Source of the DNA: an uncultured Nitrososphaeraceae archaeon
Lineage (GTDB): Archaea > Thermoproteota > Nitrososphaeria > Nitrososphaerales > Nitrososphaeraceae
Assembly: GCA_963779615.1 (NCBI GenBank)
Contig: CAVZZA010000003.1
Coordinates: 256,001-320,000 of the forward strand
Reading direction: 5' to 3'
DNA: 64,000 nucleotides
Below are positions 35,468 to 40,083 of the stretch, piece after piece; position 1 is the stretch's first letter, and every line of letters starts with the position of its first letter. The translations under genes were made by a program, and so were the position numbers. The notes beneath the pieces are model-generated. The model saw only the letters and a program-made list of their open reading frames with translations, was not told the origin of the DNA and did not search any database.

Positions 35468-38400
35468 CTATATCGGGTTTGTTGTTGGGGAATTACTTTG
35501 CATCCATTCCAAGGTTTTAATAAACGAAATGGCGCTTTCAACGGTTGTAAGTACCGGTATGCCCATCTCAACGGCCTTCCTGCGAATCAGGTACTCGTCA
35601 TACAGCATCCCAACATACTTTTCCACGGTGGATGTCGATGGTATGTTGATTATAAAATCAATTTTTCTGTTGGTTAACAGATTCAGGATATTGGGGTGCC
35701 TTTCAGGTTCGCTGATTTTATAGACCAAATCTACGTTTTTAAAGCCAGACTTTTCAAAATATTCAGCAGTGTGTTCGGTTGCTAGGATTCTAAAGTTCAT
35801 CAACGAGATCATGGAAATCAATGGGAGAAGCTTTTCCTTATTTTTGATGCCTCCAACGGTAATTAAAGCTGAACCCGATAACGGCAACGAGTAACCCGCT
35901 GCAGTGTAGGACTTGGACAGTGCATCGTAAAACGTGTTTCCAAAGCAGGCAACCTCCCCGGTCGATTGCATCTCTACCCCCAACACAATATCTGCCCCCT
36001 CAAGTTGCATAAACGAAAATTGTGGCACCTTTATTCCAAATCCCGACTTTTTAAGCCAATGATCATTTTCTAAAGCGGGTAACTTAACTCCCAAAATTGA
36101 TTTTGCAGACAACTCTATGAGGTTTATCCCAAAAAACTTTGAAACAAAAGGCATAGAGCGAGATGCGCGGATGTTCGCTTCGATTACATAAACTTCATCA
36201 TCCTTAACAAGGTACTGGATATTAAAGGGGCCTTTAACATGAAGGGATTTTCCAATTTTAATGGTGTTGTCCATGATTGTGTCAATAGTTTTTCTGCTCA
36301 ACCTCCATGGGGGAATGCACATCATGGCATCACCTGAGTGAATGCCGGCGTTGTCAATGTGTTCAATAATTGAGCCAATCACAATCCTGTCGGAGCTCCC
36401 AACTGCATCTACCTCCACCTCAGACGCATCTTCCAAAAACTTGCTTATCACAATGGGGTAATCAGGGCTGACATTTGACGCTTCCCTAATAAATTGCTCC
36501 AACTGATCCTCACTCCAAACAACCTTCATTGCAGAGCCGCTAAGCACGTATGAGGGTCGGACAAGCATCGGATATTCTGCCTCCAAGGCAAAGTTTTTGG
36601 CCTTTTCCAGACTGGTAAAAATTTTCCACGGTGGTTGTTTTATCAGCAGCGAATCTAGCAGATTGCTGAACTTTGAACGATCTTCAGCTTTATCCACATC
36701 ATGGCTTGACGTTCCCAGTATCCGTATATCATAGTTATTTAATTTAGAAACAAGGTTATTTGCACTCTGGCCACCAACACATGTAACCAAACCAAATGGT
36801 TTTTCTTTCTCGCATATGTCCAATACCCGCTCAAGGGTTAATTCCTCAAAATACAGCCGATCAGGAACATCATAGTCTGTGGAAACGGTTTCAGGATTGC
36901 AATTGATAATAGAAATACTCTTTATCCCGTTCTCCCTTAAACCGTAAACCATGTTTACAGTTCCCCAATCAAATTCAACACTGCTGCCTATACGGTATGG
37001 ACCGGCACCCAAAACAATAGCGCTTTTGCCATCACCTGAACTAGGGACGTCTGAAACGTCATCATACTCACCGCCGTATGTAAGGTACAGATAATTTGTT
37101 TTTGCAGGCCATTCTGCAGCCAGTGTATCAATTTGTTTTATTACAGGGACGATTCCAAATCTTTTTCTAAGCTCCCTTACCTGATGCTCCTCAAGGTTAA
37201 AGCACCTGCCTATTTGTTTGTCAGAAAAACCTAGTTTTTTGGCTTCAGAGATCAAAGATATATCAAACTTTGATTTTCTTAATTTAATTTCCTCATCCAC
37301 AATGTTTTTGATTTTTACAAGAAACCAGGGATCGACAAACGATAGTCTGTTTATCCTGTCGATGCTCAACCCAATCTTCATGGCTTTTACAATATTGAAT
37401 ATGATTTCATCGTCTGGATTCATTAATGAGTATTCAACCTTTTCTATTTCAGATGTATCGGGGGAAGGCTCATCGTCGGTTTTTTTATTTGGCAGTCCAA
37501 CGTCTGAATCAGCACTGTTTGCAACCAGTCCGTCTTTGCCTATCTCGCACATCCTGACTGCCTTTTGGATGACCTCCTCAAAGTTTTTTCCCAATGCCAT
37601 AACTTCTCCCACAGACTTCATTGTGCTTCCGAGTTTTCGTTTTACCAACTCGAATTTTTTAAAGTCCCATCTTGGCATTTTAACAACCATATAATCCAAG
37701 GATGGCTCAAAACAAGCGGTGGTAACTTTGGTAATTTTGTTGACAAGTTCTGGAAGCGAGTATCCAAGGCCAATTTTGGCAGCCATATATGCTAGCGGGT
37801 AACCTGTTGCTTTACTCGCTAATGCAGACGATCTCGATAACCTGGCATTTATCTCAATTGCGCAGTATTCATCCGACTGCGGATTTAGGCCAAATTGAAT
37901 GTTGCATTCTCCCACTATTTTACAATAGGAGGTTGCCCTTAATGCAGCATCCCTCAAAAAATGATATTCATAATTATTTAGTGTTTGTGAGGGGGCTACA
38001 ACAATATTGTCTCCGGTATGGACCCTCATCCCAAGAACATTCTCCATATTGCAAACAATAACGCTATTTCCTTCGTGATCTCTCATTACTTCATATTCGA
38101 TTTGCTTCCATTCTCCAACGTATCTTTCGATAAGGACCTGGTTAACCATACTTAACGCAAGTCCCCTCTGGACAATCTCAAACAAATCATACTCATTATA
38201 GGCCACTCCTCCCCCTCTTCCTCCCAGGGTATAGGCAACACGAATGATTACGGGAAATCCTATTTCTTTTGATATTTTAAGGGCCTCCTCAAATGAATAA
38301 GCGGGAGCACTGCTTAAAACAGGAATGTTACTGCTTATCATTGCTTCCTTGAATTTCTGCCTGTCCTCGGTTATTTTTATCCCTTCAATTGAGGTGTTTA

Positions 38401-38771
38401 ACACACTTATGCCATATTTTTTCAATATGCCATTATCAAACAAATCAACCCCGCAATTGAGCGCAGTTTGACCTCCAAAACCGAGCATTATGGAGTCAGG
38501 GCGCTCCAATTCTATTATTTTTTCAACATAATTTCTATTGATTGGTAACAGGTAAACCTTGTCTGCAAATTTTTTGTCAGTTTGAATAGTGGCTATGTTG
38601 GGATTAACAAGTACACTCGAAATACTCTCTTCTTTGAGGGCTTTTAAGCATTGAGAACCGGAGTAGTCAAATTAGCGGCTAGATTTAAGTCTAGCTTTCG
38701 CCTGCTTCTCCGATTTTTATAGCTCCACTGCCCAGCACTATGACTTTTTTTATGTTTTTATTTTTTGGCAT
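35468..38771 (-). CDS. carB: Carbamoyl-phosphate synthase large subunit; exon 1 38771-38697, exon 2 38671-35468 (1092 aa after splicing)
   Basis: MPKNKNIKKVIVLGSGAIKIGEAGE + FDYSGSQCLKALKEE...; two ATP-grasp halves and a C-terminal MGS domain. Confidence 0.95.
38672..38696 (-). other. Candidate 25-nt BHB intron in carB mRNA
   Basis: AGCTAGACTTAAATCTAGCCGCTAA; central helix GGCG/CGCU, bulges AAA and AAU, inner helix GCUAGA/UCUAGC. Confidence 0.88.
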
Positions 38772-38839
38772 TCCACATCATCAAATAATAATTATTTTAT
38801 CGAAACAGTGCAACATATTGATTTAAACTCATCCCTTTC

Positions 38840-40003
38840 TCAATTATTTTTGTTGCCGTTATTTATAATAAGATCTTTAAATTTGCTGAAAACAAACAAA
38901 CAATCAAATGGCCCAGGCGATGCTTCAGGGTGGAATTGGACGGCGATTATTGGCTTAGACTTATGCTTAATGCCCTCTACGGTTTTGTCATCAATGTTTT
39001 GAAACCATAGTTCAAATCCAGTGTCACTCAAGCTCTCAAGCTCAACACCGTATCCATGGTTTTGGCTGGTGATAAATGAATGGTTTGAATCAAAATCAAC
39101 ACATGTTTTATTTTGACCCCTGTGGCCAAACTTTAGCTTTTGCGTCCTTGCTCCTGCAGCTAATGCAAGTATTTGGTGCCCCAAGCATATTCCCAATGTA
39201 GGTATAGAACTGTCAATTATTTTAGAGGCAGTTTGTATGGTTTCACTACATATCACAGGATCACCAGGACCATTGCTTATGACAATTCCCCTCGGCCTGT
39301 ACGCGGTGACTTCCTCGATTGATGAGTCCCAAGGTAGCCTGATAACACTAAAGCCCGATTTTATCAAGTTTCGTATGATACTAAATTTTGTCCCGGTATC
39401 AATCAAAGCAATCAAAGGATCAGAGTCCTTTCCATAAAATTGGGGATTTTGGATTGAAACATCATTCATAAAGTTGTGACTGCCATAGTCAAATTGACCA
39501 CCTTTATCAACAGCGGTTGCTGTTGATTTGCTCTCACCATTGATTATTATTTTTCCATTCATCACCCCTTCAATCCTAATTTTTTTTGTTAATTCTCGGG
39601 TATCAACTCCATAAATCCCTGGAACTTTTTGTTGGTATAACCATTCATCCAATGTTTTAACACAAGACCAATGGCTTGAGACATTGGAAAGATCATTGAT
39701 GATAACTCCCGAGGTTTGAATGCCATACGATTCAAAATATTTTGGAAGGCCGTACTCATCCAAATCAAACTCGGACGGGACGCCATAATTTCCAATTGAC
39801 GGATACGTAAAACAAAGAATTTGACCCCTGTATGAAGGATCAGTCAAGGTCTCTGTATATCCAACCATTCCCGTGTTGAAAACAATTTCACCAGTAACCG
39901 TTTTTGGAAATCCAAAACCAACCCCGTTGAATATGGTTCCATCATCAAGTAATAGCTTTGCCTCATATCCGATATATTTGTTAAAAAGTGTCGGAATATT
40001 AAT
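38840..40003 (-). CDS. carA: Carbamoyl-phosphate synthase small subunit (start uncertain)
   Basis: AKLLLDDGTIF...GEIVFNTGMVGY, SNGPGDP, GICLGHQ, QFHPE; the frame is open up to ATT at 40003. Confidence 0.93.
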   Translation of the reverse strand: MNIPTLFNKYIGYEAKLLLDDGTIFNGVGFGFPKTVTGEIVFNTGMVGYTETLTDPSYRGQILCFTYPSIGNYGVPSEFDLDEYGLPKYFESYGIQTSGVIINDLSNVSSHWSCVKTLDEWLYQQKVPGIYGVDTRELTKKIRIEGVMNGKIIINGESKSTATAVDKGGQFDYGSHNFMNDVSIQNPQFYGKDSDPLIALIDTGTKFSIIRNLIKSGFSVIRLPWDSSIEEVTAYRPRGIVISNGPGDPVICSETIQTASKIIDSSIPTLGICLGHQILALAAGARTQKLKFGHRGQNKTCVDFDSNHSFITSQNHGYGVELESLSDTGFELWFQNIDDKTVEGIKHKSKPIIAVQFHPEASPGPFDCLFVFSKFKDLIINNGNKNN

Positions 40004-40083
40004 CCCTTAAATCCAAAAAAAAACCATCATTTATAAATTTTTGTAAAATAATTTAGCAATGTTTATCGAAGAAGAAAAAATAT

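Follow-up and report, generated by a model that had tools for sequence, protein, structure and literature searches.

A bulge-helix-bulge intron in the carB pre-mRNA of Nitrososphaeria: removal from RNA, covarying structure and wide distribution

A bulge-helix-bulge (BHB) intron in the cbf5 pre-mRNA of Crenarchaeota was reportedly described by Watanabe et al. in 2002. In their passages on mRNA introns, later papers name cbf5 as the only confirmed case in a coding region and add one further mRNA substrate, in a Haloferax 5' untranslated region (UTR) (PMC2738675, PMC7714728). Here, we analyzed carB, which encodes the large subunit of carbamoyl-phosphate synthase, in a stretch of 64,000 nucleotides from an uncultured Nitrososphaeraceae archaeon (GCA_963779615.1, contig CAVZZA010000003.1, positions 256,001 to 320,000 of the forward strand; hereafter the window), and found that a 25-nt insert in this gene is a real, ancient and widespread pre-mRNA BHB intron. 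The initial annotation of the window, which had proposed such an intron from the DNA letters, cited cbf5 as the classic archaeal mRNA case, in agreement with the same passages of the two papers (PMC2738675, PMC7714728). No report of a carB intron was found in the literature searched, outside of which lay subscription journals, supplementary files and the Cenarchaeum genome paper of Hallam et al. 2006.

Judging from the cbf5 sections of PMC2738675, the carB intron has several traits in common with the cbf5 intron of Crenarchaeota: both are short BHB introns in a coding gene that use the tRNA-splicing machinery, occur in lineages with hetero-oligomeric endonucleases, show precise lineage-specific losses and confound gene prediction. 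The host gene of the carB intron differs, encoding a core metabolic enzyme rather than an RNA-modification enzyme, and it belongs to mesophilic ammonia-oxidizing Nitrososphaeria; a distance of 75 nt separates the intron from the start codon, and its structure takes in ~28 nt of each exon. The cbf5 intron list of Yokobori et al. 2009 gives none for Cenarchaeum or Nitrosopumilus (PMC2738675), and the cbf5 gene of the host genome covers TIGR00425 positions 3-321 in one open frame with no stops. The BHB of Haloferax volcanii HVO_1309, as presented in the section of Schwarz et al. 2020 on this transcript (PMC7714728), is likewise an mRNA substrate of the archaeal splicing endonuclease. Unlike the carB element, it lies in a 5' UTR, interrupts no frame and is a single-species euryarchaeal case. 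With the archaeal tRNA and rRNA BHB introns, including the relaxed forms cut by (alpha-beta)2 and epsilon2 EndA, the carB intron shares a 4-bp central helix between two bulges and symmetric cut sites; its likely dependence on EndA and RtcB, and a loose outer helix tolerated by a broad-specificity enzyme, can be likened to theirs (PMC5829648). It is distinguished from them by its messenger host, in which half of the central helix, parts of both bulges and the whole outer helix are coding. The BHB is thus largely coding sequence, so that its nucleotides are constrained by RNA folding and by the encoded protein alike.

On the minus strand, carB reads ...ATC GGA GAA GCA GGC GAA / AGCTAGACTTAAATCTAGCCGCTAA / TTT GAC TAC TCC GGT..., where the middle element is the 25-nt insert (38696-38672). 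The gene is divided as follows.

38697 to 38771, minus strand: carB exon 1, 25 codons including the ATG at 38771; translation MPKNKNIKKVIVLGSGAIKIGEAGE
38672 to 38696, minus strand: carB BHB intron, 25 nt, AGCUAGACUUAAAUCUAGCCGCUAA; absent from RNA contigs, placed by the cross-species register
35468 to 38671, minus strand: carB exon 2, 1067 codons plus stop, beginning FDYSGSQCLK

In the frame of exon 1, the insert reads AGC TAG, placing a stop at codon 27. The longest conventional carB open reading frame (ORF; 35468-38509, 1013 amino acids, TTG start) has 79 codons fewer than the 25 + 1067 of the two exons. This layout, with its frameshifting insert, its AGC TAG stop, an ORF that opens 79 codons late and a 1067-codon exon 2, had been set out in the initial annotation, and we re-derived it from the sequence. 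Exon 2 matches the CarB profile TIGR01369 over positions 25-1051 of 1052 (1326.9 bits). Because the match starts at position 25, the ~24 residues that exon 1 supplies are missing from exon 2.

The insert was absent from carB RNA. We compared three metatranscriptome runs from three studies (X2, X16 and X17) and one DNA run (X1) with the window over positions 38000-39100. One contig in each RNA run lacked the 25 nt at 38672, at full local depth (7.36 of 7.36 in X2, 4.41 of 4.41 in X16 and 2.4 of 2.4 in X17), while the DNA run kept the insert (0 of 3.44 left out) in a 222-nt contig over 38548-38769. The bridging RNA contigs (899, 390 and 227 nt for X2, X16 and X17) extend well over 31 letters to each side of the site and show 10, 4 and 0 other differences from the window, to which the RNA runs are ~98.5 to 100% identical. 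No other differences were listed within the flanks at 38646-38725. As assembled soil-metatranscriptome contigs, these data indicate presence, not proportions; no unspliced carB contig was present in the three RNA runs, from which assembly drops minor forms. The same 25-nt deletion, found in RNA only and in three independent studies, is the prediction of splicing, and the exact segment proposed as an intron is the one removed.

The same contigs bear on the idea that the ribosome skips the insert, by translational bypassing (hopping), frameshifting or stop readthrough. In phage T4 gene 60, a stop directly after the take-off codon is followed by a hairpin, an arrangement that the carB site resembles. 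However, the carB RNA contigs are themselves 25 nt shorter, and the insert, which ends in ...GCUAA/UUU, offers no landing codon matching GAA. Furthermore, insert lengths across species range from 17 to 52 nt and cover all three classes modulo 3, inserts of 3n length always contain stops, against readthrough, and the conserved features of the site are those of a BHB. We therefore find skipping by the ribosome barely credible.

The 71-nt stretch carrying the insert has a predicted folding energy of -22.9 kcal/mol, compared with -11.53 +/- 2.74 for 200 dinucleotide shuffles (z = -4.15), none of which was as stable (0 of 200). The fold shows GGCG paired with CGCU, AAA as a 3-nt bulge, and a 6-bp stem with no mismatch (GCUAGA/UCUAGC) that closes a loop of 6 nt. 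Its elements, together with those found by alignment, are listed below.

38699 to 38702, minus strand: central helix, 5' strand GGCG, exonic (Gly-Glu codons GGC GAA); pairs with 38674-38677
38674 to 38677, minus strand: central helix, 3' strand CGCU, intronic; from fold and alignment
38678 to 38695, minus strand: inner hairpin, 6-bp GCUAGA/UCUAGC with loop CUUAAA; from fold and covariation
38696 to 38698, minus strand: 5' splice-site bulge AAA, probable cut after the second A; from fold and register
38671 to 38673, minus strand: 3' splice-site bulge AAU (AAUU in the minimum free energy, MFE, fold), probable cut after the second A; from fold and register
38703 to 38715, minus strand: outer helix, 5' strand in exon 1, AAUCGGAG.AGCA; from fold, RNAalifold and fixed synonymous sites
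38656 to 38669, minus strand: outer helix, 3' strand in exon 2, UG.CU.CUCCGGUU; from fold, RNAalifold and fixed synonymous sites
38722 to 38725, minus strand: distal helix, 5' strand GAGC; RNAalifold columns 2-5 with 85-88
38646 to 38649, minus strand: distal helix, 3' strand GCUU; RNAalifold

The 4-bp central helix, the AAA bulge and the 6-bp inner helix appear here as they had been drawn from the DNA alone. Two parts of that drawing did not hold: the 3' bulge, given as 3 nt, has 4 nt (AAUU) in the MFE fold, and the outer helix, given as weak, is loose beside the 3' bulge and then continues for ~12 further pairs into both exons. Beyond it lies the distal 4-bp helix, ~25-28 nt from the splice sites, giving a structured region of ~80 nt that is mostly coding. 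These dimensions also speak to a self-splicing (group I or II) or novel ribozyme-type intron, which would make the insert something other than an EndA substrate. At 17-52 nt the inserts fall far below the size of group I or II introns, whose ribozyme core takes up hundreds of nucleotides, the insert has no Rfam match at E <= 1, and the conserved geometry is that of a BHB; the chance of a ribozyme appears negligible to us.

The BHB structure is conserved and covarying. We aligned 71 distinct sequences (insert plus 30 nt of each exon) with MAFFT and folded the alignment by RNAalifold, which predicted the BHB unaided, along with the outer and distal exon-exon helices. In the named structure, 88.5% of the cells were paired, versus 82.5% in shuffles (0 of 500 reached 88.5%), and 134 cells were compensatory, versus 53.9 (0 of 500 reached 134); the sequences being related, these counts are not probabilities, and the argument is carried by the distinct pair types and by slid controls, in which moving the partner by 1-3 columns left 21.6-47.8% paired. 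Compensatory change was seen in five of the six inner-stem pairs. The three pairs beside the invariant G-C closing pair switch among U-A, C-G, G-C and A-U, with 21-31 sequences each, and are unpaired or gapped in at most 2 of the 71. The central helix (columns 25-28 with 57-60) is 97.2% paired, with a C-G to U-A change in two separate families. Its outermost pair is G-C in 37 sequences and G-U in 26. The 5' bulge comprises 3 nt (A-R-W) in all 71 rows, and for the 3' bulge a drawing with 3 nt (A-N-U) is possible.

The outer helix (12 pairs, 85.3% paired) is mostly invariant, and its support comes from the fixation of synonymous sites and from pair 24:65, which switches between A-U and G-C. In the window's genus, the Ala and Phe third positions that form this pair change together, A occurring with U (19) or G with C (7). 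At the distal pair 3:87, 46 sequences have G-C and 17 have A-U. When the alignment was widened to flanks of 48 nt (80 distinct rows), the structure was the same, with no element past ~28 nt on either side.

The exons carry both constraints. The last 10 residues of exon 1 are invariant or nearly so in all 84 insert-bearing loci of the survey described below, and several of their codons vary synonymously, indicating that exon 1 is translated in that frame. In the large family f13, the helix-forming codons ATC, GGA, GGC, GAC and TAC are each used by 49 of the 49 insert-bearing genes, versus mixtures in the 30 insert-less ones.

Comparison among species also fixes the register of the cuts. When both boundaries were slid together, only shift 0, in which each 3-nt bulge is cut after its second nucleotide, restored GE/FD in 84 of 84 loci, and in 37 of them it was the unique solution. 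In the window alone, shifts of -1 and -2 (1-2 nt toward the 5' side) yield an identical joined sequence. The rule for the archaeal splicing endonuclease is cleavage behind the second nucleotide of either bulge, and the sole register that fits all loci agrees with it. The cuts first proposed, restoring GEAGE/FDYSG, are thus the ones that the wider comparison points to.

Several observations weigh against a BHB intron at this site. The outermost central pair is a G.A mismatch in 8 of the 71 sequences. The 3' bulge is not strictly canonical, with its 4 nt in the MFE fold and a 5x1 internal loop in the consensus, and on these models the 3' splice site would be a relaxed BHB form. Part of the codon contrast in f13 is explained by the GC content at third codon positions (0.43 in insert-bearing and 0.27 in insert-less genes); the fixation of codons in 49 of 49 genes is not predicted by a value of 0.43. 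The RNA evidence consists of assembled soil contigs rather than pure-culture reads; minor forms are lost from such contigs, and DNA can be present in RNA libraries. In addition, the RNA and DNA runs come from different samples and insert-less carB occurs in other lineages, so that an insert-less DNA allele in the populations that supplied the RNA is conceivable. A difference in DNA of this kind, or an insert that is an assembly artefact, would account for the short contigs without splicing. However, the insert is present in independent assemblies of 25 of 25 species of the genus and in DNA run X1, and the three RNA runs show the short form only, at high identity to the window. Because the insert is kept in the congeners and in X1, and because the X17 contig has no further difference from the window, an insert-less source is hard to credit. 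Insert-less lineages have moreover lost the fixed synonymous sites, whereas the RNA contigs match the window over 38646-38725. A difference in DNA thus strikes us as very improbable, though the least so of the alternatives to splicing considered here, and removal of the insert from the transcript is the reading we retain.

The initial annotation had suggested aligning carB 5' ends, and this comparison revealed same-site inserts in many relatives. The first 150 residues of exon 2 served as the query against 41 relatives and 151 genomes of the class, and the insert was scored in the 5' regions by the distance from the ...GE codon to the FDYSG codon. An insert of 17-32 nt was found at the same site in 84 of 140 Nitrososphaeria carB loci; the 140 genomes omit G099 (a weak match, 43% identity) and those giving no match. 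All 25 species of the window's genus (g1), the window included, carry an insert of 25, 26 or 32 nt. It also occurs in two other genera of the window's family, in seven other families of the order and, outside the order, in one genome; in f13 it is present in 49 of 79 genomes. In the other 56 loci the GE-FD junction (AE-FD in a few) is unbroken, with residues neither gained nor lost.

Named records gave a consistent picture: 21 of the 80 contain an insert, of 20-52 nt. Each of these 21 belongs to the 33 records labelled Nitrososphaeria or Nitrososphaerota, 2 of which could not be assessed. None of the 47 with other labels has it, these being Bathyarchaeia, Aenigmatarchaeota, Asgard groups, Thermoplasmata, Methanomicrobia and bacteria. 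Titles of insert-bearing records include Nitrosocosmicus, Nitrososphaeraceae, Nitrosotenuis, Nitrosarchaeum and Cenarchaeum, and the named records closest to the window's carB are titled Candidatus Nitrosocosmicus sp. One record titled Nitrosopumilus sp. (L146) is 87% identical to the window's exon 2 and has a 26-nt insert as in the soil genus, so its label conflicts with its sequence. Two records (L150 and L152, Nitrososphaeraceae/Nitrososphaerales) bear A-rich same-site inserts of 38 and 52 nt, indicating that the intron can grow by loop expansion with its core kept. Presence and absence of the insert require at least 8 changes on the gene tree, compared with 33-44 for shuffled labels; this is a quick maximum-likelihood tree from 447 nt of exon 2, among them the first intron-constrained codons, on which gain and loss are indistinguishable. 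The intron is old and common to Nitrososphaeraceae, Nitrosopumilaceae and several other Nitrososphaeria families. In three genomes, carB has 1-2-nt frame changes near exon-2 residues 452, 690 and 831 (L227 in G147, L228 in G186 and L229 in G011, respectively); no insert occurs at those positions, and the changes are probably assembly indels.

Database annotation at first sight suggests a broken gene. Among the best 120 public gene models, none has the joined contiguous motif and none is right at the N-terminus: 96 carry an 18-residue artefactual N-terminal extension (e.g. ...SEKQAKV...), which is exon 1 and the insert read in the exon-2 frame, and 12 start downstream of the junction motif. Since none is correct at the N-terminus, the databases hold truncated or wrong-frame CarB for the whole clade. 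Together with the truncated conventional ORF, such models could be taken to mean that a 25-nt insertion has broken carB and that the gene is decaying as a pseudogene, with carbamoyl phosphate coming from another source. An intact second carB, which the initial annotation had allowed for, was not found in the host genome (3.17 Mb in 5 contigs, 92.5% complete), where the sole other match is an ATP-grasp protein of 27% identity; the genome thus has one carB. Both exons are under strong protein-level constraint across the 84 loci, the 1067-codon frame is intact, the insert is kept at one site with compensatory changes in many species, and it is absent from RNA. We consider decay of the gene no more probable than a ribozyme, that is, next to impossible.

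We next consider the enzymes that would remove the intron. The host genome encodes two ORFs with both EndA domains (201 and 216 amino acids; PF01974, 97 and 71 bits) and one RtcB ORF (PF01139, 569 bits), and each of the three exceeds its curated cut-off. For the stronger EndA paralogue, the best match is chain B of PDB 3p1z, 3ajv and 2zyz, which we take to be two-subunit crenarchaeal heterotetrameric enzymes, and the second paralogue is more distant. According to PMC5829648, (alpha-beta)2 EndA can cut non-canonical introns. The presence of two paralogues agrees with this type of enzyme, for which the relaxed 3' bulge would be a suitable substrate. ARAGORN, run with introns allowed, reported introns in 16 of 38 tRNAs, a soft count, as some are 309-653 nt long and likely artefacts.

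From these elements, we infer EndA and RtcB as the acting enzymes in a constitutive reaction, with cut positions taken from the cross-species register. The ~80 nt of transcript, including ~28 nt of each exon, would fold into a rod composed of the distal helix, the outer helix, the 4-bp central helix with its two bulges and the inner hairpin. The splicing endonuclease, probably a two-subunit broad-specificity EndA, would cut after the second nucleotide of each bulge, and RtcB would ligate the exons. The mature mRNA (...GGC GAA/UUU GAC...) would then encode a 1092-residue CarB, in which the glycine-rich N-terminal motif ...GSGAIKIGEAGE/FDYSG... is restored. Unspliced RNA would give only a 26-residue peptide, ending at AGC UAG. 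We hold it highly probable that constitutive splicing by EndA and RtcB is required for CarB synthesis.

The fate of unspliced RNA appears to be the same throughout the survey. All 33 loci with inserts of 3n length have an in-frame stop, and for the other lengths the shifted frame stops within the insert or at most 149 nt beyond. With stops in every length class, full-length CarB is impossible in any species unless the insert is removed. Among 56 distinct inserts, a stop occurs in the exon-1 frame in 41, versus 22 and 14 in the other two frames.

The initial annotation had further raised the possibility of a post-transcriptional switch, and the evidence gives it no support. The loop varies freely, and a sensor could not be accommodated in the smallest insert, which at 17 nt has a stem of 3 bp and a loop of 4 nt. 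All carB contigs recovered across the site from the three RNA runs were spliced; as contigs drop minor forms, regulated splicing is still conceivable. No conserved loop or alternative fold pointing to a switch was seen in the inserts. Given the unconserved loop and the size of the smallest insert, a metabolite-sensing switch is unlikely. A checkpoint role would be in keeping with the exon-wide constraint, the universal stops in 3n inserts and the distance of 75 nt to the start codon, at which the outer helix would be melted by ribosomes during translation; none of these features demonstrates such a role. In its fullest form, such a reading would hold that the intron is a selected, obligatory checkpoint that predates the split of Nitrososphaeraceae and Nitrosopumilaceae, and the first of a wider, unannotated set of mRNA micro-introns in ammonia-oxidizing archaea (AOA). 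On that reading, ~28 nt of each exon would have been shaped to present the BHB, and the in-frame stop would make unspliced RNA untranslatable. The supply of carbamoyl phosphate for arginine and pyrimidines would thereby depend on the capacity of EndA and RtcB, or on whether splicing outruns the first ribosome. We offer this joint reading as speculation and think it rather unlikely as a whole.

A scan of the host genome sought further mRNA introns with a 4-bp central helix containing no more than one G-U, an inner stem of 4 bp or longer and a hairpin between 9 and 55 nt. It gave 60,191 structural candidates, of which 1,438 join an upstream frame that has a start to one of 100 codons or more; in 561 of these the exon-2 frame is closed at the insert, and 83 lack any start codon up to 12 codons from the junction. 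The carB intron was among them; its downstream frame (1067 codons) was the longest, and its core was GC-rich. The other 82, inspected by eye, were mostly AT-rich weak helices and none was convincing, in a crude, non-exhaustive scan that misses relaxed motifs. A loose sequence-signature scan returned 216 matches. Two GC-rich look-alikes on contig C4 were rejected as chance, being antisense to a duplicated Rossmann-fold N-terminus. They belong to a GC-rich stretch outside the window (C4:256500-257100) in a genome of 36% GC, where a duplicated segment of ~155 nt repeats the N-terminus of a Rossmann-fold (GxGxxG) oxidoreductase on the minus strand, and its antisense mimics a BHB. This stretch may be foreign DNA or contamination.

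Directly upstream of carB lies the gene for the small subunit.

38840 to 40006, minus strand: carA (small subunit), TIGR01368, 381 bits

The RNA contig of run X2 spans 38429 to beyond 39100, indicating at least partial co-transcription of carA and carB. The 5' end of carA (39868-40006, minus strand) encodes a conserved N-terminus, ..IPTLFNKYIGYEAKLLLDDGTIFNGVGFGFP.., upstream of the first in-frame ATG, GTG or TTG, and the ATG-started ORF matches CarA models only from profile position ~30-32. In most congeners, the carA frame opens 1-3 codons ahead of the conserved IPTL, with no canonical start at that place. A TATA-like TTTATAAA is located ~25-30 nt upstream. No insert was seen in the carA 5' end, and translation of carA could begin at a non-AUG codon (AUU or AUA) or on a leaderless transcript. 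The window also contains two tRNAs, which have no bearing on the carB intron.

By the passages of the papers cited above that treat mRNA introns (PMC2738675, PMC7714728), carB is the second case in archaea of a BHB intron that interrupts a reading frame. It sits in an essential biosynthetic gene of globally abundant AOA and has been kept in dozens of species, and by record titles the insert-bearing lineages with cultured members include Nitrosocosmicus, Nitrosotenuis, Nitrosarchaeum and Cenarchaeum. Pathway reconstructions or pseudogene counts could be misled by the wrong carB models. The intron provides a natural system for studying dual RNA and protein constraint and repeated, scarless changes between presence and absence, and it raises the question of whether archaeal mRNA splicing is more common than annotated.

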